Of a stretch of DNA of 64,000 bases, positions 2,483 to 51,915 are shown piece by piece. Both the position numbers and the translations under genes were made by a program. This stretch comes from Escherichia coli (GTDB taxonomy: Bacteria > Pseudomonadota > Gammaproteobacteria > Enterobacterales > Enterobacteriaceae). Under the pieces are notes generated by a model. It had not been told where the DNA came from. It ran no database searches and was given only the letters and a program-made list of their open reading frames with translations. How positions within the stretch are numbered: the stretch's first letter is position 1; each line of letters begins with the position of its first letter. The stretch lies in the NCBI RefSeq assembly GCF_003790525.1, contig NZ_CP033635.1, one strand, 5' to 3'.

Positions 2483-2587
2483 CTAGCCTGTCCGTTCAAT
2501 AAGCAGAACGGACAAAACCAGCACAGCAGCAATGGCAAAAAACGATGACGTGATAATCAGTGTCTCGACGAACATTTGATCGTTCAT
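2483..2587 (-). CDS. yoaI: small membrane protein YoaI, 34 aa
   Basis: Minus-strand translation [34 protein letters not shown]; below the ORF-track size cutoff; stop codon directly abuts the yeaK stop. Confidence 0.8.
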
Positions 2588-2756: not shown

Positions 2757-3203
2757 ATGTTTGATGTCACTTTGCTGATCCTGCTCGGGTTAGCTGCGCT
2801 GGGCTTTATCAGTCATAACACCACTGTCGCCGTTTCAATTCTGGTGTTGATCATTGTCCGCGTCACACCGTTAAGCACCTTTTTCCCGTGGATTGAAAAA
2901 CAGGGGCTAAGTATCGGGATAATCATTCTGACGATTGGCGTTATGGCTCCCATCGCCAGCGGGACGCTACCGCCCTCAACCCTGATTCACTCATTTCTGA
3001 ACTGGAAATCGCTGGTGGCAATTGCAGTCGGCGTTATTGTCTCCTGGCTGGGGGGGCGCGGCGTGACGTTAATGGGCAGCCAGCCGCAACTGGTCGCCGG
3101 GCTGCTGGTGGGCACTGTTTTAGGCGTGGCGCTGTTTCGCGGCGTACCGGTTGGCCCGCTTATTGCCGCGGGTCTGGTTTCGCTGATTGTGGGGAAACAG
3201 TAG
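2757..3203 (+). CDS. yeaL: UPF0756 inner membrane protein YeaL, 148 aa
   Basis: Full-length ORF; highly hydrophobic multi-TM protein; conserved position. Confidence 0.92.
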
Positions 3204-6119: not shown

Positions 6120-7145
6120 GTGTCAGATCAGATTATCGCCCGCGTCTCGCAATCCCTTGCCAAAGAACAGTCACTGGAAAGCCTGGTCCGACAGCTTCTG
6201 GAGATGCTGGAAATGGTCACTGATATGGAATCAACCTACCTGACCAAAGTGGATGTCGAAGCGCGCCTGCAGCATATAATGTTTGCCCGTAACAGCCAGA
6301 AAATGCACATCCCGGAGAATTTTACCGTCTCGTGGGATTATTCGTTATGCAAACGCGCCATTGATGAAAACTGCTTTTTCAGCGATGAAGTCCCCGACCG
6401 TTGGGGCGACTGTATTGCGGCACGCAATCTTGGCATCACCACATTTCTGAGCACGCCAATTCACTTACCGGATGGATCATTCTATGGCACGCTTTGCGCC
6501 GCCAGCAGTGAGAAGCGCCAGTGGAGTGAACGCGCGGAACAGGTTTTGCAGTTATTCGCCGGACTGATTGCACAATATATTCAAAAAGAGGCGCTGGTAG
6601 AACAGCTGCGCGAAGCCAATGCCGCACTGATAGCGCAATCGTATACCGACTCGTTAACCGGGCTACCGAATCGGCGGGCGATTTTTGAAAATCTGACGAC
6701 GCTGTTTTCTCTCGCCCGGCATCTTAACCATAAGATAATGATCGCGTTTATCGACCTGGATAACTTCAAATTAATCAACGATCGTTTTGGTCATAATAGT
6801 GGCGATCTGTTTCTCATTCAGGTTGGCGAGCGCCTTAATACGCTCCAGCAAAATGGCGAAGTTATTGGTCGTCTCGGCGGTGATGAGTTTTTGGTTGTTT
6901 CACTGAACAACGAGAATACGGATATTTCGTCGCTGCGAGAACGTATTCAACAGCAAATACGTGGAGAATATCACTTAGGTGATGTTGATTTGTATTATCC
7001 CGGTGCCAGTCTTGGCATAGTAGAAGTCGATCCTGAAACGACCGATGCAGACAGTGCCCTGCATGCTGCCGATATCGCGATGTATCAGGAGAAAAAACAC
7101 AAACAGAAAACACCTTTTGTCGCGCATCCAGCGCTACATTCCTGA
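6120..7145 (+). CDS. dgcP: diguanylate cyclase DgcP (YeaP), GAF-GGDEF, 341 aa
   Basis: ORF 5991..7145; GTG at 6120 gives the 341-aa product; intact GGDEF motif (RLGGDEFLVVS); N-terminal GAF-like domain. Confidence 0.92.
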   Translation: MSDQIIARVSQSLAKEQSLESLVRQLLEMLEMVTDMESTYLTKVDVEARLQHIMFARNSQKMHIPENFTVSWDYSLCKRAIDENCFFSDEVPDRWGDCIAARNLGITTFLSTPIHLPDGSFYGTLCAASSEKRQWSERAEQVLQLFAGLIAQYIQKEALVEQLREANAALIAQSYTDSLTGLPNRRAIFENLTTLFSLARHLNHKIMIAFIDLDNFKLINDRFGHNSGDLFLIQVGERLNTLQQNGEVIGRLGGDEFLVVSLNNENTDISSLRERIQQQIRGEYHLGDVDLYYPGASLGIVEVDPETTDADSALHAADIAMYQEKKHKQKTPFVAHPALHS

Positions 7146-7177
7146 GGCGTATTCACATCCTTTTGATTGGTGATAAC

Positions 7178-7276
7178 ATGCGAATCGGTATTATTTTTCC
7201 GGTTGTAATCTTTATTACAGCGGTCGTATTTTTAGCATGGTTTTTTATTGGCGGCTATGCTGCCCCGGGAGCATAA
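7178..7276 (+). CDS. yoaK: small membrane protein YoaK, 32 aa
   Basis: Translation MRIGIIFPVVIFITAVVFLAWFFIGGYAAPGA*; single predicted TM helix; below the ORF-track cutoff. Confidence 0.8.
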   Translation: MRIGIIFPVVIFITAVVFLAWFFIGGYAAPGA

Positions 7277-7278
7277 AG

Positions 7279-7353
7279 ATGAAAAAAACAACGATTATTA
7301 TGATGGGTGTGGCGATTATTGTCGTACTCGGCACTGAGCTGGGATGGTGGTAA
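7279..7353 (+). CDS. yoaJ: small membrane protein YoaJ, 24 aa
   Basis: Translation MKKTTIIMMGVAIIVVLGTELGWW*; starts 2 nt after the yoaK stop. Confidence 0.78.
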   Translation: MKKTTIIMMGVAIIVVLGTELGWW

Positions 7354-7411
7354 CGTCACATCTAGAAAATAGCAAAGGCTGCCTGTGTGCAGCCTTTGTG
7401 CAATTTACGCG

Positions 7412-7660
7412 TTAACTTTTAATCTTTCTGTAGATAAACAGCACGACAATCGCGCCAATAACGGCAACCACGAAGCTGCCAAAATTGAAGCCATCGACTT
7501 TACCAAAGCCAAACAGCGTGCTGATCCATCCGCCGACTACGGCACCGACTATCCCCAGCAGGATAGTCATAAAGAATCCACCACCATCTTTACCTGGCAT
7601 GATCCACTTCGCCAGAATACCGGCAATAAGCCCAAAAATAATCCATGACAGAATGCCCAT
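7412..7660 (-). CDS. yeaQ: GlsB/YeaQ/YmgE-family stress-induced membrane protein YeaQ, 82 aa
   Basis: Full-length ORF; glycine-rich transmembrane protein. Confidence 0.92.
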   Translation of the reverse strand: MGILSWIIFGLIAGILAKWIMPGKDGGGFFMTILLGIVGAVVGGWISTLFGFGKVDGFNFGSFVVAVIGAIVVLFIYRKIKS

Positions 7661-11450: not shown

Positions 11451-11652
11451 CGTTCTTTGCAGTAAATAACCTGCGTCATTTCACCTTTTATTGTTTCCGT
11501 TTCGTGTTTTATGGCTTTCCGTATTCTTAATTGTTTAATTTATGTAACATGCAAATAATCAATTTGTTAATCACGACATACAACTCATTACCCTGCAAAT
11601 AATTACAACTGGCAAAAGCCAGAGACGGGCTTTTATGCCCAGGAGATGACTC

Positions 11653-13263
11653 ATGATGAGCAATGTTAAGAAAAAAGATGTGCCGCTGATAAGCATCAGT
11701 CTGGTGGCCATTCTTTTCATCGCAGCTGCATTAAGCCTTTTCCCACAACAATCGGCCGACGCGGCCAACGCTATATACACTTTTGTTACGCGTACGTTAG
11801 GTTCCGCCGTACAGGTATTGGTTTTGCTGGCAATGGGACTGGTGATTTATTTAGCCACCAGTAAATACGGCAATATTCGTCTTGGCGAAGGAAAACCGGA
11901 ATACAGCACGCTCTCCTGGCTGTTTATGTTTATTTGTGCCGGTTTAGGTTCTTCTACGCTTTATTGGGGGGTTGCTGAATGGGCCTATTATTATCAAACA
12001 CCTGGATTAAATATCGCACCGCGTTCACAACAGGCACTCGAATTTAGCGTCCCTTACTCCTTCTTCCACTGGGGCATCAGCGCCTGGGCAACTTATACGC
12101 TGGCCTCATTAATCATGGCTTATCACTTTCATGTGCGGAAAAACAAAGGTCTGAGTCTTTCCGGCATTATTGCCGCGATTACCGGCGTTCGCCCGCAAGG
12201 CCCGTGGGGAAAACTGGTCGATTTGATGTTCCTGATCGCCACTGTCGGCGCACTGACCATTTCCCTTGTTGTCACCGCAGCAACCTTTACCCGTGGGCTT
12301 TCCGCGCTGACCGGTTTACCCGATAATTTCACCGTGCAGGCATTTGTGATCCTGCTTTCCGGCGGCATTTTTTGCCTAAGCTCATGGATTGGTATCAACA
12401 ACGGTTTGCAACGTCTGAGCAAAATGGTTGGCTGGGGCGCGTTCCTGCTGCCATTACTGGTGCTCATTGTCGGCCCAACCGAATTTATTACCAACAGCAT
12501 CATCAATGCCATCGGCCTGACCACGCAAAACTTCCTGCAAATGAGCTTATTCACCGATCCGCTTGGCGATGGTTCATTTACCCGCAACTGGACCGTTTTC
12601 TACTGGCTGTGGTGGATCTCATACACCCCTGGCGTAGCAATGTTTGTCACCCGCGTTTCCCGCGGTCGTAAGATTAAAGAAGTTATCTGGGGACTGATCC
12701 TCGGCAGCACCGTCGGTTGCTGGTTCTTCTTCGGCGTAATGGAAAGCTATGCCATTCACCAGTTTATCAATGGCGTAATCAACGTCCCACAGGTGCTGGA
12801 AACACTGGGCGGCGAGACAGCTGTGCAGCAAGTTCTGATGTCGTTGCCAGCCGGTAAATTGTTCCTCGCCGCATACCTGGGCGTGATGATTATTTTCCTT
12901 GCCTCGCATATGGATGCAGTGGCCTACACCATGGCGGCGACCAGTACGCGTAATCTCCAGGAAGGTGACGATCCTGACCGTGGGCTGCGTCTTTTCTGGT
13001 GCGTGGTAATTACCCTGATCCCGCTTTCAATTCTTTTCACTGGCGCGTCGCTGGAAACGATGAAAACCACCGTCGTACTCACAGCCCTTCCGTTCCTCGT
13101 CATTTTACTGGTGAAAGTCGGCGGATTTATTCGCTGGCTGAAACAGGATTACGCCGACATTCCGGCTCATCAAGTTGAATATTATCTCCCGCAGACACCG
13201 GTTGAAGCCCTGGAAAAAACACCAGTGCTCCCTGCGGGAACCGTATTCAAAGGCGACAACTGA
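11653..13263 (+). CDS. yeaV: BCCT-family transporter YeaV (putative carnitine/betaine transporter)
   Basis: ORF with ATG at 11653 preceded by AGGAG; BCCT family resemblance by similarity to CaiT; exact annotated start uncertain. Confidence 0.88.
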
Positions 13264-16635: not shown

Positions 16636-16663
16636 GTCAAAAAAAACGCCGGATTAACCGGCG
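16636..16663 (-). terminator. intrinsic terminator downstream of fadD
   Basis: Minus strand ACGCCGG-TTAAT-CCGGCGT followed by TTTTTTTT. Confidence 0.7.
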
Positions 16664-16683
16664 TCTGACGACTGACTTAACGC

Positions 16684-18369
16684 TCAGGCTTTATTGTCCA
16701 CTTTGCCGCGCGCTTCGTCACGTAATTCTCGTCGCAAAATTTTTCCGACGTTAGATTTCGGTAACTCATCACGAAACTCCACCAGCTTCGGTACTTTGTA
16801 GCCCGTGAGCTGACGGCGGCAAAAAGTCACCAGTGACTCTTCGGTAAGCGATGGATCTTTTTTCACAACGAAGATTTTCACCGCTTCACCACTAGAGCCG
16901 GAAGGTACGCCAACAGCCGCGACTTCCTGTACGCCAGGATGCTGCATGACGACATCTTCAATCTCGTTGGGATAGACGTTAAAACCGGAAACCAGAATCA
17001 TGTCTTTTTTACGATCGACAATGCGCAGGAATCCTTCTTCATCCATCACCGCGATGTCGCCGGTGTGTAACCAGCCATTTTTGATGATTTCATCGGTAGC
17101 ATCCGGACGCTGCCAGTAACCCAGCATCACCTGCGGTCCTTTGACACAAAGCTCACCTGGTTGACCAGGTGGTACTTCATTATCATCATCATCCACCAGT
17201 TTGGCTTCCGTCGACGGCACCGGCAAACCGATGCTACCACTATGATAATCAATATCATACGGGTTAACGCTCACCAGCGGCGCACACTCGGTCAGGCCAT
17301 AACCTTCCAGCAGATACTGTCCAGTCAGTTTCACCCAACGTTCTGCCACCACTTGCTGAACAGGCATCCCTCCGCCTGCGGAAAGATGCAGACTGGAGAA
17401 ATCCAGCTGCTGGAACTCTTTATTGTTCAGCAACGCATTGAACAAGGTGTTAACGCCAGTGATAGCGGTAAACGGATATTTCGCTAACTCTTTTACCAAC
17501 CCTGGAATATCGCGCGGGTTAGTGATAAGCAGGTTCTGCCCCCCCAGTTCGATAAACAGCAGGCAGTTAATGGTCAGTGCAAAAATGTGATACAGCGGCA
17601 GCGCCGTCACCACCAGCTCTTTGCCCGGATGCAACAGCGGACCATAGGTCGCGTTAACCTGTTCCAGGTTCGCCAGCATATTGCGGTGAGTCAGCATCGC
17701 GCCTTTCGCCACACCAGTGGTACCGCCGGTGTATTGCAGGAAAGCTAAATCTTCCGGCACCAGTTCGGGTTTGACGTACTGCATCCGGTAGCCGTTGTGC
17801 AGGGCGCTACGAAATGAAATGGCATCTGGCAGATGGTATTTCGGCACCAGACGCTTGATGTATTTAACAACGAAATTGACTACCGTGCCTTTTGCCGTAG
17901 ATAGCTGATCGCCCATACGGGTCAGAATTACGTGCTGAACGGCGGTTTTATCAACCACTTTTTCCAGAGTGTGGGCAAAGTTAGACACGATAACAATCGC
18001 CGATGCGCCGCTATCGTTAAGCTGATGCTCAAGTTCACGCGGGGTATACAACGGGTTAACGTTTACGACAATCATCCCGGCACGCAAAATGCCAAACAGC
18101 GCCACCGGATATTGCAATAAATTAGGCATCATCAACGCAACGCGATCGCCTTTCTTCAGTCCCAACCCTTGTTGCAAATAAGCGGCAAACGCGCGACTGC
18201 GTTCTTCCAGTTTGCGGAAGGTCATCACCTCCCCCATATTCACAAACGCGGGTTGATCGGCGTAGCGCGCGACCGACTGCTCAAACATATCTACCAGAGA
18301 TTGATAACGGTCAGGGTTGATCTCCGTCGGAACGTCCGCGGGATAACGGTTAAGCCAAACCTTCTTCAA
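16684..18369 (-). CDS. fadD: long-chain-fatty-acid--CoA ligase FadD, 561 aa
   Basis: ORF 16684..18435; the 561-aa product begins [33 protein letters not shown]..., implying a TTG start at 18369; AMP-binding motifs present. Confidence 0.93.
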
Positions 18370-23173: not shown

Positions 23174-23353
23174 TTACTCGTCTTCATCCTCAAAACGCGC
23201 CACGATTCGCTCGCCGGAATGGTTGGCACGCAGCTCTTCTGCCATCAACGCGATTGCCTGGCCGCTGCTCATCCCTTGAGCCATCAGTTCCTGGATCCGC
23301 TCGACAGCTTTTTGCTGCTGTTCATGGGTGAGTGAAGGTAAACCTGCAAACAT
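23174..23353 (-). CDS. yoaH: UPF0181 protein YoaH, 59 aa
   Basis: Minus-strand translation [59 protein letters not shown]; divergent from pabB. Confidence 0.85.
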
Positions 23354-28650: not shown

Positions 28651-30207
28651 TTACTCATCTTCATCGTGCGCCGGTTGCTCTTTAACAATGCGAACCAGAT
28701 CAACACGATAATCATTGGCTTCAATGATGGTGATATGCAGTGGCCCTACATCAATCACATCGCCCACACGGGGAATGTGACCATTTGCCGAGATCACGAG
28801 GCCCGCGACCGTCGCGATATCATCGTCATCGGCAAGGTGCTCAACATCAAGCGCCTGCTGCAAGGCATGCAAATCTGTACCGCCTTTTACCAGCCAGCCG
28901 TCACCGTCGGTAATGATTTCCGGCGTTTCGTCAGCGTCCGGGAATTCACCCGCAATGGCTTCCAGCACATCCAGCGGCGTGACCAGACCTTGTACCACAC
29001 CAAACTCGTTGGTCACGATAACAAAGCTCCCGCGAGCACGACGCAGTACGCCCAGCAGGTTGATCGGATCGAGGGTTTCCGGGACGATAATCGCCGGAGA
29101 CGCCGAAGCAATCGCCGCCACATCAACGCCCTCTTCCAGCGCCACCAGCAGTTCTTTAGCACGTACGATACCGATGATTTCATCCAGTTCACCGCGACAT
29201 ACCGGGAACAGACTGTGCGGTGAAGAGAGCAGTTGCTCGCGGATTTCATCGACCCCGAGATTAGCGTCAACCCAGCTTATTTCACCGCGCGGCGTCATGA
29301 TCCCGCGCAGAGAACGCGACGCCAGCGTCAGTACGCCGTTAATCATGTAACGTTCTTCTTCGGCAAATGCACCTTCCGGGATCGGCATCGGCATCGGGTT
29401 ATCGGCATCGTGCTGGACATTGGCCTGACGTTTCCCGCCCATCAAACGCAGGATGGCATCGGCAGTACGCGCTCGCAGCGGCAAAGTCGACTGGTGACGA
29501 ATAAAGTTGCGACGCGCAATTTGGTTAAACACTTCGATGATGATCGAGAAGCCAATCGCGGCATACAGGTAACCTTTCGGAATGTGGAAACCGAAACCTT
29601 CTGCCACCAGACTCAGACCTATCATTAACAGGAAGCTCAGACAGAGCACCACCACCGTTGGATGCTGGTTAACAAATCGCGTCAGCGGTTTCGATGCCAG
29701 CAGCATAACCGCCATCGCAATCACTACCGCCGCCATCATCACTGGCAGATGGTTAACCATCCCTACTGCCGTAATTACCGCATCCAACGAGAAGACGGCG
29801 TCAAGGATGACGATCTGTGTGACGACCACCCAGAAACTGGCGTAGCCTTTACCGTGGCCGGAATCATGATCGCGGTTTTCCAGCCGTTCATGCAGTTCGG
29901 TTGTTGCTTTGAACAGCAAGAATATCCCCCCGAACAACATAATCAGGTCGCGTCCGGAGAAGGAGAAATCCATGACGGTAAATAGCGGTTTGGTCAGCGT
30001 GACCATCCATGAAATCAGCGACAGCAGCCCCAGACGCATAATCAGCGCCAGTGATAATCCCAGCAAACGCGCTTTATCGCGTTGTTTTGGCGGCAGTTTG
30101 TCAGCAAGAATGGCGATGAAGACCAGGTTATCGATACCCAGCACAATTTCGAGAACAACAAGCGTGAGTAGCCCCGCCCAAATCGAGGGGTCCATTAAGA
30201 ATTCCAT
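28651..30207 (-). CDS. yoaE: TerC-family/CBS-CorC domain inner membrane protein YoaE, 518 aa
   Basis: Full-length ORF; N-terminal TerC-like TM region, C-terminal CBS pair and CorC/HlyC domain. Confidence 0.93.
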
Positions 30208-30669
30208 GACAAGCTCCTGCTTAAGGAATAGCTATTCGACGCCAGAAATAATGCAGGCGTAACGACAAAATGCAAACGAAAGGTGCGGCATAAAGTGCCA
30301 GAAAGGCAGGCGTTAAAAGGCCTGATGCTGAAATGACGTCGGTGACGATCCATACTGCGGGCTACTGCCCTATACTCCATGGTTGTTAAACAGGAGTTAA
30401 ACATATCAGAGACACATCTGATTTGGCAAAGATTTACCTTCCTTTGCAAACGAATGTGACAAGGATATTTTACCTTTCGAAATTTCTGCTAATCGAAAGT
30501 TAAATTACGGATCTTCATCACATAAAATAATTTTTTCGATATCTAAAATAAATCGCGAAACGCAGGGGTTTTTGGTTGTAGCCCTTATCTGAATCGATTC
30601 GATTGTGGACGACGATTCAAAAATACATCTGGCACGTTGAGGTGTTAACGATAATAAAGGAGGTAGCAA

Positions 30670-33881: not shown

Positions 33882-34084
33882 GTTATGAATTTAGCCAAAG
33901 CTATGTTTAGTGTATTTTTAATAATCAGACATAGCTTAGGCTATATTACCTCTTCCCTTATTTGTTATTTATTTTAACGTTTCATTGATATATAAATCTA
34001 AATGAAAATCGTTATCAATAAAGTGATGAAATAATATATTCCAACAGTTGTTTTATATTCTCAAAATATGTTAAGGTTGCGCCC

Positions 34085-34215
34085 TCATTTGGGGAGTAGC
34101 CGATTTCCAGATTCCGGAAATGTACGTGTCAACATACTCGTTGCAAAACGTGGCACGTACGGACTGAACACTTTCAGTCAGGCGAGACCATATGCACATC
34201 AATCGCTATGCCTGC
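34085..34215 (+). promoter_or_regulatory. Mn2+-sensing yybP-ykoY riboswitch in the mntP 5' leader (approximate bounds)
   Basis: Conserved UUGGGGAGUAGC (34090..34100) and ACAUACUCGUUGCAAAACG / CAGGCGAGACC elements within a roughly 230-nt leader upstream of mntP; mntP is known to carry this riboswitch. Confidence 0.7.
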
Positions 34216-35682: not shown

Positions 35683-35775
35683 GACAACTCCGGCAGGATA
35701 CTAAAGGCCGCAAGTGTAACGCGAATCACGCGGCGGGCAAATATCCGAACGCCAGGAGCGAAGATAAAGCAAAGT

Positions 35776-35803
35776 AAAAAGCCTCGCATTCGGCGAGGCT
35801 TTA
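35776..35803 (-). terminator. intrinsic terminator downstream of cspC
   Basis: Minus strand AAAGCCTCGCC-GAAT-GCGAGGCTTT followed by TT. Confidence 0.7.
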
Positions 35804-35847
35804 TAGCGAGATTGAAGCGTATTCACACTTCAGATCAGTGGATTCGA

Positions 35848-36057
35848 TCAGATAGCTGTTACGTTAACAGCTGCCGGACCTTTCTGGCCGTCCTGAATTT
35901 CGAACTCAACGTTCTGACCTTCAGCCAGAGTTTTGAAGCCATTACCCTGGATAGCGGAGAAGTGTACGAACACGTCTTTGCTGCCATCAGCCGGAGTAAT
36001 GAAGCCAAAACCTTTAGACTCGTTGAACCACTTAACCTGACCTTTAATCTTTGCCAT
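35848..36057 (-). CDS. cspC: cold shock-like protein CspC, 69 aa
   Basis: Full-length ORF; [22 protein letters not shown]... with RNP motifs. Confidence 0.97.
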
Positions 36058-36069
36058 TTGAAAAATTCC

Positions 36070-36213
36070 TTAGATTGTTTTCTTCGCCCGCAGGCATAAC
36101 ATAGATAAAACTGACACATTACTGCATGAGGCACCAATATAAGGCTCGGCAGAGAAGCGGTATTCAACGTCAACGTGTTTACTCAGGACTTCTTTACTGA
36201 AAATGCCACACAT
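36070..36213 (-). CDS. yobF: small protein YobF, 47 aa
   Basis: Minus-strand translation [47 protein letters not shown]; ends 12 nt upstream of cspC (yobF-cspC operon). Confidence 0.82.
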
Positions 36214-36882
36214 AAACAGAACTGTACCTCGTTTAACCCGAAATCTGTTATCACATACAACGTTAATTATGGCAAGCCATTTTTAAACATGTCTCGATCA
36301 GACGCACAAATCTCGATACGTCTTCCACTTTTTTTGCACACTTATGCAACGGAATACGCGCCGATATATCATTGTGCTTAACCTTGCCAGTTCAGGCAGA
36401 TACTTAAACTGACGTATTTTCTAACATAGTTCAATAAGTTCAGTTGTTCCATGCCAATGGGAGAAGTTATTACATAGTGCGTGCAATATCACATTTTCTG
36501 CTATGCAATGAATAAAAAGTTATATCACTTTTTCTCATAAAACAGTCAGTTAACGGCCATCAATCACCCCAAAGAGAAGTCAATCGCCAAAGGTATTGTA
36601 AATTTAAAATAAGAAAAATTGATGAATGCGCAAAAAAATCAAGAGAGAAACGTTTCGCTAATAAATAATACCACGCTTAATCACAAATCCGATGTAAACA
36701 TCCTAATAAATTAATGGGCTAAATATCTTTTTCTGATATCCCGTTACGCAAATAAATAATATGATAATTATTTGAAGTCAGACCAGAGTTTTAATTTGAA
36801 GCAGTTGCACCATGACAGTGCGTATAATCAGGATGAATTGAGTAACCCTTCAACGACGGGGTTACTCAAGATTGAGGAAGGA

Positions 36883-37244: not shown

Positions 37245-37388
37245 TCACCACGGGATAAACTGGTTAATGGCACAAATTCCGCTGAAAAATTGTACATCCT
37301 GATCGCACATCATGTTGAATACCTGCGCCCAAAGCAGCAAGCAAGCCAACACCACGACAACCAGAACGACCCATCGAAACTTTTTCAC
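37245..37388 (-). CDS. mgrB: PhoQ feedback inhibitor MgrB, 47 aa
   Basis: Minus-strand translation (GTG start) [46 protein letters not shown]; GGAG upstream. Confidence 0.88.
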
Positions 37389-44879: not shown

Positions 44880-46163
44880 ATGGCTCTTAACACACCACAA
44901 ATTACGCCGACAAAGAAGATAACAGTGAGGGCTATCGGCGAGGAACTGCCGCGTGGTGATTACCAACGTTGCCCGCAATGTGACATGCTGTTTAGCCTGC
45001 CCGAGATAAATTCTCATCAAAGTGCCTATTGTCCGCGCTGTCAGGCAAAAATTCGTGACGGGCGCGACTGGTCGCTAACGCGCCTGGCGGCAATGGCGTT
45101 CGCTATGCTGTTGTTGATGCCGTTTGCCTGGGGCGAACCGCTGTTGCATATCTGGCTGTTAGGCATCCGTATTGACGCCAACGTTATGCAAGGCATCTGG
45201 CAAATGACCAAACAGGGCGATGCGATAACGGGGTCGATGGTCTTTTTTTGCGTTATTGGTGCCCCCCTTATTCTGGTGACCTCCATAGCTTATTTATGGT
45301 TTGGTAACCGACTGGGAATGAATTTACGTCCGGTACTGCTGATGCTTGAGCGACTGAAAGAGTGGGTAATGCTCGATATCTACCTGGTCGGCATTGGCGT
45401 TGCTTCTATAAAGGTACAGGATTATGCCCATATCCAGGCGGGTGTCGGCTTGTTCTCTTTTGTGGCGTTGGTGATTTTAACGACGGTGACGTTGTCACAT
45501 CTTAATGTCGAAGAACTGTGGGAGCGATTTTATCCGCAGTGCCCCGCTACGCGAAGGGACGAGAAACTCCGTGTCTGTCTTGGGTGTCATTTTACCGGCT
45601 ATCCTGATCAGCGTGGTCGCTGCCCGCGTTGCCATATCCCGCTACGCCTGCGTCGCCGTCATAGTCTGCAAAAATGCTGGGCGGCGCTGTTAGCGTCAAT
45701 CGTTTTGTTGTTACCTGCCAACCTGTTGCCTATCTCTATCATTTATCTGAATGGTGGTCGGCAGGAAGATACGATTCTTTCCGGAATTATGTCGCTGGCA
45801 AGTAGCAACATTGCGGTTGCGGGAATCGTGTTTATCGCCAGTATTCTGGTACCGTTTACTAAAGTGATCGTCATGTTCACTTTACTGTTGAGTATTCATT
45901 TTAAATGCCAGCAAGGTTTACGCACACGCATTCTGTTACTGCGGATGGTGACCTGGATTGGTCGCTGGTCGATGCTCGACCTGTTTGTCATATCTTTAAC
46001 CATGTCGCTGATTAATCGCGATCAGATCCTCGCTTTTACTATGGGACCGGCTGCGTTTTATTTCGGCGCAGCGGTAATTTTGACTATTCTTGCTGTGGAA
46101 TGGCTGGACAGCCGCTTACTTTGGGATGCACATGAGTCAGGAAACGCCCGCTTCGACGACTGA
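44880..46163 (+). CDS. letA: PqiA-family inner membrane protein LetA (YebS), 427 aa
   Basis: Full-length ORF; two PqiA repeats each with a Cys4 zinc-ribbon (CPQC...CPRC; CLGC...CPRC). Confidence 0.93.
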
Positions 46164-50934: not shown

Positions 50935-51591
50935 TTATTGCAATTGCACAAGAGTCAGTTCGCCCCCAAAGACAGCACCTGTATCAATATAATGCAGGTT
51001 GCCAATATCCACGCGATGGCGCAACGGTGTATGACCAAACCAGAAATGATCAGCACCTGTAATTCCCTGCCCTTTTTGGCGTTCACCTAACCGCGAGCGG
51101 CTCCACAAGACCTGATGCAAATCGACGTCCTTTTGCCATTCATAAACATCATCCGGATAATCGGCATGGGCAATAACATGTTTGCCGGTGCGACTGTGTA
51201 CTTCAAGAATAAAGGGCAAATACTGACATTTTTCCAGCGCCGTTTTCGCTTGTTTCTGTTGATAATCTGCCAGCGCAATAAACCAGTTGCCGCCATTCAT
51301 CAACCACAAAGACATCTGCTGGGATGCCAGCGCATCCATCGCCATCTGTTCATGATTGCCTCTTACCGCACGAACCCAATGTTGTTCCAGTAACTGCAGA
51401 CAACGTAAACTTTGCTGCCCACGATCGATAACGTCTCCCACTGAGATAAGTAAATCTCGCCACGGATCAAAACGACAATGCCATAATTTGCGGCGCAACT
51501 GCTCAAGACAACCGTGTATATCGCCTGAAAGCCAGATATGTCGCCATTGATGACCCGCAATTCTCTGATAAACGGGCGCAGGCTGTTTCAT
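50935..51591 (-). CDS. pphA: serine/threonine protein phosphatase 1 PphA (PrpA), 218 aa
   Basis: ORF 50935..51594; metallophosphatase motifs (GDIHG, GDVIDRG, GNHE); stop directly abuts the yebW stop. Confidence 0.93.
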   Translation of the reverse strand: MKQPAPVYQRIAGHQWRHIWLSGDIHGCLEQLRRKLWHCRFDPWRDLLISVGDVIDRGQQSLRCLQLLEQHWVRAVRGNHEQMAMDALASQQMSLWLMNGGNWFIALADYQQKQAKTALEKCQYLPFILEVHSRTGKHVIAHADYPDDVYEWQKDVDLHQVLWSRSRLGERQKGQGITGADHFWFGHTPLRHRVDIGNLHYIDTGAVFGGELTLVQLQ

Positions 51592-51725
51592 CAATATTTT
51601 CCTCCCGCGCTAAAGATCACATAATCTTAACAAGAATGTTAAAAAACGCTGGACTCAGACAGTAGAGTGTGTGTTATGGTTGACTATAAAGTCAGCGAAG
51701 GGAATGCTTCTGGCTTTTAACAGAT

Positions 51726-51828
51726 AAAAAGAGACCGAACACGATTCCTGTATTCGGTCCAGGGAAATGGCTCTTGGGAGAGAGCCGTGCGCTAAAAGTT
51801 GGCATTAATGCAGGCTTAGTTGCCTTGC
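51726..51828 (-). ncRNA. sdsR: small regulatory RNA SdsR (RyeB)
   Basis: Minus strand reads GCAAGGCAACUAAGCCUGCAUUAAUGCCAACUUUUAGCGCACGGCUCUCUCCCAAGAGCCAUUUCCCUGGACCGAAUACAGGAAUCGUGUUCGGUCUCUUUUU, matching remembered SdsR including its 3' terminator hairpin and U-tail; sigma-S-type -10 (CTATTCTTAA) just upstream. Confidence 0.85.
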
Positions 51829-51915
51829 TCTTTAAGAATAGATGACGACGCCAGATTTTCCAGTTTGCGTGCAAAATGGTCAATAAAAAGCGCGGTGGTC
51901 ATCAGCTTAAATGTT

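Follow-up and report, generated by a model that had tools for sequence, protein, structure and literature searches.

The yoaK-yoaJ locus and its surroundings

The DNA under study is a 64,000-nucleotide stretch of Escherichia coli, referred to here as the window, and a pair of very short open reading frames (ORFs) occupies positions 7178-7353 of its plus strand. The first ORF runs from an ATG at 7178 through 32 codons, encoding MRIGIIFPVVIFITAVVFLAWFFIGGYAAPGA, to a TAA at 7274-7276 (7178..7276, +), while the second starts with an ATG at 7279, comprises 24 codons encoding MKKTTIIMMGVAIIVVLGTELGWW and ends with a TAA at 7351-7353 (7279..7353, +). There is virtually no doubt that the two are yoaK and yoaJ, known coding genes that belong to the E. 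coli core genome and specify single-helix inner-membrane proteins of 32 and 24 amino acids, respectively. On the upstream side lies dgcP (yeaP; 6120..7145, +), which in the RefSeq annotation encodes a GAF-GGDEF diguanylate cyclase and is the upstream member of the dgcP-yoaK-yoaJ transcription unit. On the downstream side, the pair faces yeaQ (7412..7660, -), a conserved convergent neighbour coding for an 82-residue membrane protein of the GlsB/YeaQ/YmgE family. The coordinates, the peptides, the 2-nt gap and the placement between dgcP and yeaQ, all given in a preliminary description of this DNA, were confirmed from the sequence and from RefSeq.

Several independent records agree on the identity of the genes. 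RefSeq uses the names yoaK and yoaJ at this position in K-12, in the best-matching strains and in all E. coli matches listed; in the RefSeq entry of K-12 MG1655, yoaK is b4676 and yoaJ is b4675, their starts corresponding to K-12 positions 1878773 and 1878874. The K-12 genes do not differ from those of the window, as they have identical protein sequences in public collections and the same position between dgcP and yeaQ. YoaK residues 1-32 aligned to positions 1-32 of the 32-position NCBIfam profile NF033821 ("YoaK family small membrane protein", equivalog) with 69.1 bits (E = 1.8e-19; curated cut-off 32 bits), and YoaJ scored 60.4 bits (E = 1.1e-16; curated cut-off 54 bits) against the 24-position profile NF011343 ("protein YoaJ", equivalog). 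Within the species, the 801 bases around the pair had matches in 5418 of the 5426 complete E. coli genomes, many of them with 100% identity, and at least 80% of the 201-nt yoaK-yoaJ region was found in 5403 of the 5426. Identity over the 201-nt region was at least 99% in 5338 matching records, compared to just 754 records at 99% for the 801-nt stretch including the flanks.

With regard to transcription, an RNA-seq operon database lists yeaP-yoaK-yoaJ as one transcript (PMC4620388), and our terminator scan of the plus strand returned no terminator-like site between the dgcP stop codon and yoaK. The sole sigma-70-like match on the plus strand, at 7152-7179, was rejected as a yoaK promoter because its -10 element overlaps the yoaK ATG. 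The two small genes lie at the 3' end of this transcript. Between the convergent genes yoaJ and yeaQ, the terminator scan located a GC-rich hairpin (7373..7398, no strand assigned) having a 10-bp stem and a T-run on the minus strand. This hairpin also forms in the minimum free energy (MFE) fold of the plus-strand RNA, its stem is retained, with differing sequence, in Salmonella, Citrobacter and Enterobacter, and it is a probable bidirectional intrinsic terminator. A long hairpin within yoaJ, seen in the E. coli MFE fold, was discarded as a candidate conserved RNA element, as it involves sequence following the stop codon that varies even among Escherichia species. We also considered that the genes might belong to a stationary-phase stress operon, an idea that would require sigma-S dependence of dgcP. 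DgcP has been reported to be under vegetative RpoD control, being fairly abundant in growing cells and less so once these reach stationary phase (PMC5635695), and the idea was therefore dropped.

The preliminary description had further placed four small genes in the window, and their coordinates proved correct. All four lie on the minus strand and have the expected products: yoaI (2483..2587, -), a 34-residue small membrane protein (NCBIfam NF041475, 79.8 bits); yoaH (23174..23353, -), a 59-residue UPF0181 protein (Pfam PF03701, NCBIfam NF003476); yobF (36070..36213, -), a 47-residue DUF2527 protein (Pfam PF10736) encoded upstream of cspC; and mgrB (37245..37388, -), the 47-residue PhoQ inhibitor, which uses a GTG start (NCBIfam NF007635, Pfam PF13998). 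Absent from that list was yoaL (30195..30353, -), annotated with 52 residues and known as b4751 in K-12, an upstream ORF that overlaps the start of yoaE and is present as an ORF in the window. A stop codon in yoaL strongly reduces the activity of a yoaE-lacZ fusion, translation of yoaL being needed for yoaE expression (10.1101/511675). Further hydrophobic small ORFs occur at 45571-45693 (+) and 50955-51086 (-), and K-12 coordinate mapping locates them inside letA and pphA.

The portrayal of all these genes as encoding small membrane proteins holds for YoaK, YoaJ and YoaI but not for YoaH, which is hydrophilic, lacks a hydrophobic stretch (GRAVY -0.51) and, by its sequence, is not a membrane protein; YobF has no predicted transmembrane helix, yet its His-tagged form fractionates with membranes (PMC11429745). 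Likewise, the view that functions are largely obscure except for MgrB is dated, since YoaI, also reported as PhoB-regulated, has been reported to bind and stimulate EnvZ (PMC12648545), and deletion of yobF impairs growth in low Mg2+, a defect that can be complemented (PMC11429745). The small genes are indeed missing from an ORF track with a 60-residue minimum, but this reflects the cut-off rather than biology. Nor is the richness of the window in small genes statistically significant: given about 150 annotated proteins of up to 50 residues per 4.64 Mb (PMC11429745), the expectation for 64 kb is 2.07, as compared to five observed (Poisson P = 0.059), so that about 4 of the roughly 72 genome windows of 64 kb reach five by chance. 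In such a count, yoaK and yoaJ represent one locus and not two independent events. The finding itself carries little weight, as it re-finds two annotated, experimentally detected small proteins and four further small genes that are likewise annotated; yoaK and yoaJ are already catalogued as E. coli small membrane protein genes, and their identity is a rediscovery that holds nothing new.

Coding selection, synteny and the stop-start junction

Because 308 ATG-initiated ORFs of 24-59 residues exist across the six frames of the window, an ORF of such size alone proves nothing. A 15-residue stretch with a mean Kyte-Doolittle hydropathy of at least 2.5 is present in three of the 308, a count that is not itemised by ORF. 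YoaK, YoaJ and YoaI all exceed this threshold, and the 15-residue maxima of 3.10 for YoaK and 2.52 for YoaJ bear out their earlier characterisation as hydrophobic single-helix ORFs. Across 62 species-representative Enterobacteriaceae genomes, the pN/pS ratio in the annotated frame was 0.13 for yoaK and 0.28 for yoaJ. The antisense frame having shared wobble positions yielded 0.28 and 0.42, respectively, as expected from the sharing, and the remaining four frames ranged from 1.07 to 4.17 for yoaK and from 1.05 to 1.87 for yoaJ. Codon-position entropy reached about 1.2 bits at the third position, as compared to 0.1-0.6 bits at positions 1 and 2, and both ORFs were intact at 62 of 64 syntenic loci, the two exceptions being frameshifts in homopolymer runs. 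In-frame purifying selection and the integrity of the ORFs across species identify yoaK and yoaJ as genuine protein-coding genes and not chance ORFs: they are real, conserved, annotated and under purifying selection.

These data also bear on the proposal that the two ORFs lack a function as proteins and either act as regulatory leader or trailer ORFs, affecting the stability or termination of dgcP mRNA, or are mere hitch-hikers. The selection acting at the amino acid level, seen in the pN/pS ratios, the number of invariant residues and the helical periodicity described below, largely refutes this proposal. Furthermore, the genes are located downstream and not upstream of dgcP, persist where dgcP is absent and, unlike a regulatory leader or upstream ORF, are the last genes before the probable terminator and have strongly conserved peptide sequences. 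In favour of the proposal, a deletion spanning yeaJ-yeaV, which removes both yoaK and yoaJ, leaves growth in M9 glucose unchanged (PMC9769844), YoaK-SPA, seen by immunoblot, gives one of the weaker signals within the set of small proteins first identified (10.1101/511675), and the same window does contain a genuine regulatory upstream ORF, yoaL. Weighing these observations, we judge it very improbable that the pair lacks a function as proteins.

We used an alignment of YoaK relatives to scan one genome per species, which returned 80 loci, and the distribution of YoaJ given here covers only loci found via yoaK. At 64 of the 80 loci, the synteny was that of E. coli, yeaO-yoaF-(dgcP)-yoaK, usually followed by convergent yeaQ; in RefSeq tables and in the tblastn synteny of these 64 loci, yoaK sits behind dgcP or yoaF, with yeaQ as its convergent neighbour. 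A 24-residue yoaJ ORF, which conforms to the pattern M-[KR]-K-[TS]-T ... G-x-x-x-G-W-W, directly follows yoaK in 62 of the 64, and yeaQ is located directly downstream in most yoaK-yoaJ loci. Genera carrying the pair include Escherichia, Salmonella, Citrobacter, Enterobacter, Lelliottia, Leclercia, Klebsiella/Raoultella, Kluyvera and Pseudocitrobacter. In most genera dgcP lies upstream of yoaK; it is absent in Salmonella, C. amalonaticus and C. sedlakii, where the pair is kept and is preceded by a short remnant resembling the 3' end of dgcP. At the remaining 16 loci (Kosakonia, Pluralibacter and others), a YoaK-like gene stands by itself in unrelated surroundings, with no yoaJ, and YoaK is thus able to function in the absence of YoaJ.

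Two features of the sequence records deserve mention. A set of longer proteins named YoaK (P0017-P0020, P0023, P0039), among them the apparent YoaK-YoaJ fusion P0018, was considered as Rosetta-stone evidence and rejected, since these proteins require indels in the G-run or the A7-run at the junction and were treated as frameshift or sequencing artefacts. Moreover, the tested YoaJ orthologues from Salmonella, Kluyvera, Raoultella and one Enterobacter scored 42.6-51.7 bits, under the NF011343 cut-off, and yoaJ was uncalled in three of seven loci examined from other genera. Together, the orthologues below the cut-off and the uncalled genes constitute a small and fixable annotation gap.

The boundary between the two genes is tightly conserved. 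In the window, the yoaK stop/yoaJ start junction (7274..7281, +) reads TAAAGATG, with the 2-nt spacer AG at 7277-7278, and is the putative site of translational coupling. In all 62 pairs, the distance from stop to start falls between -4 and +3 nt: 30 junctions are of the TAAATG type (0 nt), 20 have a +2-nt spacing, eight are ATGA overlaps, two have a +3-nt spacing and two are TAATG overlaps. This constancy points to translational coupling, and we consider the two genes to be probably coupled. Inspection of the initiation signals revealed a Shine-Dalgarno (SD)-like GGTGAT (7169..7174, +) located 3 nt ahead of the yoaK start codon, and 52 of the 62 orthologous loci have an SD-like motif, commonly AGGTGA, at -14 to -4 before yoaK. 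The corresponding motif of yoaJ, GGGAG (7267..7271, +), is embedded in the last yoaK codons (Pro-Gly-Ala) and separated by 7 nt from the yoaJ ATG that follows, and an SD-like motif precedes yoaJ in 60 of the 62 loci. The mRNA fold predicts a weakly structured yoaJ start. Given this weak structure and the SD of its own, yoaJ may also be initiated independently, and the fold does not by itself imply a dependence on yoaK translation.

Along these lines, the peptides might be independent of one another, the tight junction merely saving expression signals and each helix binding a different large membrane protein, as do AcrZ, MgrB, YoaI and CydX. The 16 genomes that have a YoaK-like gene but no yoaJ agree with independence, as do the SD preceding nearly every yoaJ, the different behaviour of YoaK and YoaJ in most tag formats of an RseP study (PMC10470546) and the fact that, of the small membrane proteins characterised so far, the majority work on their own (PMC12648545). 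What argues against it is that nearly all syntenic loci keep both genes intact, with homopolymer frameshifts as the only exceptions, that the junction stays within its narrow range across genera and that the pair outlasts the loss of dgcP as a unit. On this evidence, we hold independent action of the two peptides to be unlikely. The comparative work adds to the catalogued identity of the genes that they form a conserved, probably coupled unit in at least eight enterobacterial genera, independent of dgcP.

Helix faces, membrane topology and the role of RseP

The conserved residues of the two peptides fall into a regular pattern. Beyond the start methionine, 16 of the 32 YoaK residues are invariant among 35 distinct sequences (G4, I5, F7, P8, I11, F12, A15, F18, L19, W21, F22, G25, G26, Y27, A28 and P30), and six of the 24 YoaJ residues are invariant among 47 distinct sequences (K3, T5, A12, G18, G22 and W24), including a G18xxxG22 motif. 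The periodicity of conservation peaks at 102 degrees in YoaK (permutation p<0.0003) and at 104 degrees in YoaJ (p 0.004-0.013), which corresponds to about 3.5 residues per turn. Each helix accordingly has a conserved and a variable face, the arrangement to be expected if helices pack specifically against one another in the bilayer; in YoaK, positions 6, 10, 14, 17, 20 and 24 lie on the variable face. The N-termini are basic, beginning with MR- in YoaK and MKK- in YoaJ, and R2 of YoaK and K2/K3 of YoaJ are conserved as R/K; the C-termini are short and rich in Gly and aromatic residues (GGYAAPGA in YoaK, GTELGWW in YoaJ). Both peptides thus combine a single hydrophobic helix of at least about 18 residues with a positively charged N-terminal side, as in type II membrane proteins. 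The invariant Gly motifs occupy corresponding ends of the two helices and would share one leaflet if both peptides adopt an N-in/C-out orientation. No chain matching YoaK or YoaJ was present in the PDB, and neither peptide has hence surfaced as an unexpected subunit of a solved complex.

According to published work, YoaK and YoaJ are detected and, as documented for YoaJ, membrane-integral. The detection of tagged products, put forward in the preliminary description as a way to check the ORFs, had in fact already succeeded, as documented by the YoaK-SPA immunoblot (10.1101/511675) and by the N-in/C-out (type II) topology of YoaJ, determined by Fontaine et al. 2011 as cited in PMC4597795. HA-MBP-YoaJ resists alkali extraction, and YoaJ co-immunoprecipitates with the protease RseP, an association dependent on the MRE beta-loop, the MBP fusion not being cleaved (PMC4597795). 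For YoaK, a search of the literature consulted returned no comparable statement on topology or membrane integration. YoaJ levels are reported to rise after diamide treatment, as cited in PMC12542507. In vitro, both peptides are cut by purified RseP, and active RseP lowers the level of 3xFLAG-YoaJ (PMC10470546). With plasmid-borne RseP, HA-MBP-YoaK was cleaved and 3xFLAG-YoaK was not, YoaJ showing the reverse pattern, and at the chromosomal level of RseP neither peptide was cleaved in vivo (PMC10470546, Table 1). The authors placed YoaK and YoaJ in an inconsistent "class II" of RseP cleavage (PMC10470546). Our literature search found no report of a YoaK-YoaJ interaction, of yoaK-dependent YoaJ synthesis or of any phenotype.

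Considering these observations together, we propose the following mechanism. Ribosomes that end translation on yoaK would re-initiate on yoaJ, such that the two peptides would be made together, in the same place and in linked amounts. Each forms one transmembrane helix whose basic N-terminus should remain cytoplasmic and whose C-terminus would lie at the periplasmic face, and the two would insert into the inner membrane in parallel. They may then pack via their conserved faces, including, near the periplasmic leaflet, G18xxxG22 of YoaJ and G25-G26 of YoaK. Each would pack against the other and/or against a larger protein of the inner membrane, modulating the activity or the stability of the latter, and RseP may contribute to their turnover. 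The full statement, comprising known genes that specify a coupled, co-inserted pair of packing helices with RseP-aided turnover, is the one we favour, with moderate confidence. For the coupling-and-packing mechanism as such, in which we infer the coupling, the hetero-oligomer and the role as accessory subunit, we see the chances as evenly balanced. The conserved faces supply the residues to mutate in a search for partners, namely G18 and G22 of YoaJ and G25, G26 and P8 of YoaK.

A stricter form of this mechanism would make YoaK and YoaJ the halves of one obligate, coupled two-helix module throughout the Enterobacteriaceae, the heterodimer docking on and tuning a larger inner-membrane protein, with YeaQ and RseP as candidates, and the YoaJ half often being missed in annotation outside Escherichia. 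We regard this form as doubtful.

Given the RseP data, one may also ask whether the peptides act mainly via this protease, their type II helices resembling signal peptides and serving either as competitive modulators of the S2P protease or as quality-control substrates. The MRE beta-loop-dependent co-immunoprecipitation of YoaJ, the cleavage of both peptides in vitro and the drop of 3xFLAG-YoaJ in the presence of active RseP would be in line with this possibility. Over-expression of HA-MBP-YoaJ, however, has little effect on RseA cleavage (PMC4597795), and chromosomal RseP left both peptides uncleaved in vivo. In addition, RseP cleaves many unrelated small membrane proteins, and its cleavage activity consequently leaves the specific conservation of YoaK and YoaJ unexplained. 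An action mainly through RseP therefore appears improbable, and in the mechanism we favour the protease would have a part in turnover.

Being short and very hydrophobic, and having been handled alongside Hok toxins in the RseP study (PMC10470546), the peptides could finally be suspected to be type I toxin-like membrane peptides in the style of Hok, Ldr, Ibs or TisB. Several findings speak against a toxin. YoaJ serves as an N-terminal fusion and periplasmic anchoring tag that gives mg/L yields (PMC7558204), HA-MBP and FLAG fusions have been over-expressed with no toxicity reported (PMC4597795, PMC10470546), and the genes occur as a single copy per genome at a fixed syntenic site, being neither multicopy nor mobile. 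An Rfam scan of the whole window at the gathering threshold matched SraC/RyeA, SdsR, sroD and the cspA thermoregulator only, all of them outside 7100-7450, and revealed no antisense or antitoxin RNA family within that interval. We consider a toxin function to be extremely improbable.

Relation to known small-protein systems

The coupled, packing helix pair that we favour can be compared with several characterised systems. In gene arrangement, the pair resembles mgtS-mgtT, adjacent small ORFs of a single operon in which the stop codon of one and the start codon of the next overlap out of frame (PMC11429745), similar to the yoaK-yoaJ junctions of -4 to +3 nt. There is no sequence relationship between the two pairs, and whereas mgtS is controlled by PhoP and its target is known, yoaK and yoaJ are located behind a vegetatively controlled gene. 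With regard to the proteins, YoaK and YoaJ resemble RseP substrates such as YqfG, YkgR and HokB, with which they share a predicted type II topology, a very short periplasmic tail and cleavage by RseP in vitro. They differ from these substrates in that their cleavage is inconsistent in vivo, reflected in the "class II" assignment, and is not achieved by chromosomal RseP. The small subunits and regulators of the MgrB-PhoQ, YoaI-EnvZ, AcrZ-AcrB and CydX-cytochrome bd complexes match YoaK and YoaJ in size, in having a single transmembrane helix, in their inner-membrane location and in the conserved helix face, and two of their genes, mgrB and yoaI, sit in the same window. In contrast to MgrB, YoaI, AcrZ and CydX, which are single, YoaK and YoaJ are paired, and the PDB holds no complex with either of them.

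Retention and annotation of the yoaK-yoaJ pair

In one Salmonella and two Enterobacter assemblies (L004, L006 and L008 among the compared loci), yoaJ is present at locus positions 3100-3180 but carries no gene call. YoaJ orthologues from Salmonella, Kluyvera, Raoultella and the one Enterobacter tested scored 42.6-51.7 bits, below the 54-bit cut-off of the NCBIfam model, which would explain why YoaJ is nearly Escherichia-specific by annotation. The pair is also retained without dgcP, as seen in Salmonella enterica, Citrobacter amalonaticus and C. sedlakii (L004/L005, L009/L010, L018, L036, L044). Immediately upstream of yoaK in these loci (region 2805-3000 in L004/L005 and 2813-3000 in L009/L010), a brief sequence similar to the 3' end of dgcP is left (..CCTTTTGTC..). 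The persistence of this remnant-like sequence suggests that the dgcP gene body was deleted in these loci.

A second group of YoaK-like genes was found in Kosakonia, Pluralibacter and other Enterobacteriaceae (L071-L086). These genes are solitary, lying in varied contexts without yoaJ, dgcP or yeaQ, and their products follow the pattern MRIGIAFP[IV]LVFIVAVAFLAWF..GGYA.PG. while still passing the YoaK NCBIfam model with 67.3 bits. Public collections further contain elongated 'YoaK' proteins (P0017-P0020, P0023, P0031 and P0039 of the relatives search), with one apparent YoaK-YoaJ fusion. The elongation originates from indels in a G-run and an A7-run at the yoaK/yoaJ junction, and the entries most likely reflect sequencing or assembly errors.

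Strain differences and additional small ORFs

Among complete E. coli genomes, strain RS571 (NZ_CP034389.1, match H1) shows a match to the 801-nt region comprising yoaK-yoaJ and its flanks that is broken into two parts. The annotation beneath this match includes an IS1A transposase, indicating an IS1 insertion in the neighbourhood of the pair. Elsewhere in the window, yeaV (about 11650-13260) is annotated with 1611 nt in L001, the strain matching at 100%, versus 1446 nt in K-12 MG1655, a between-strain difference in start site or length.

The list of sub-60-aa genes compiled in the preliminary description was incomplete, as it left out yoaL (b4751; 30195-30353, minus strand; annotated with 52 aa), which overlaps the start of yoaE. 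The true yoaL start has been placed downstream of the first-annotated one, and a stop codon in yoaL strongly reduces yoaE-lacZ expression (10.1101/511675). Screening the small ORFs of the window by hydropathy yielded two hydrophobic ORFs with GTG starts, of 40 and 43 aa (45571-45693, plus strand, and 50955-51086, minus strand). Coordinates mapped from the K-12 annotation place them within letA and pphA, and they are probably chance ORFs.

RNA elements

Known sRNA genes in the window are sroD (16640-16725, minus strand) and the overlapping SraC/RyeA (51722-51866, plus strand) and SdsR/RyeB (51726-51825, minus strand). Upstream of mntP, a Mn2+ (yybP-ykoY) riboswitch (34083-34179, plus strand) matched with 41.9 bits (E = 8e-10), slightly short of the Rfam gathering score of 45, and was therefore lost in the default scan and recovered by the E-value scan only. 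The cspA thermoregulator (RF01766, 137.6 bits) matched 35773-36233 on the minus strand, spanning cspC and the entire yobF ORF, so that yobF sits where the csp 5' leader aligns. This position fits the published post-transcriptional induction of yobF.
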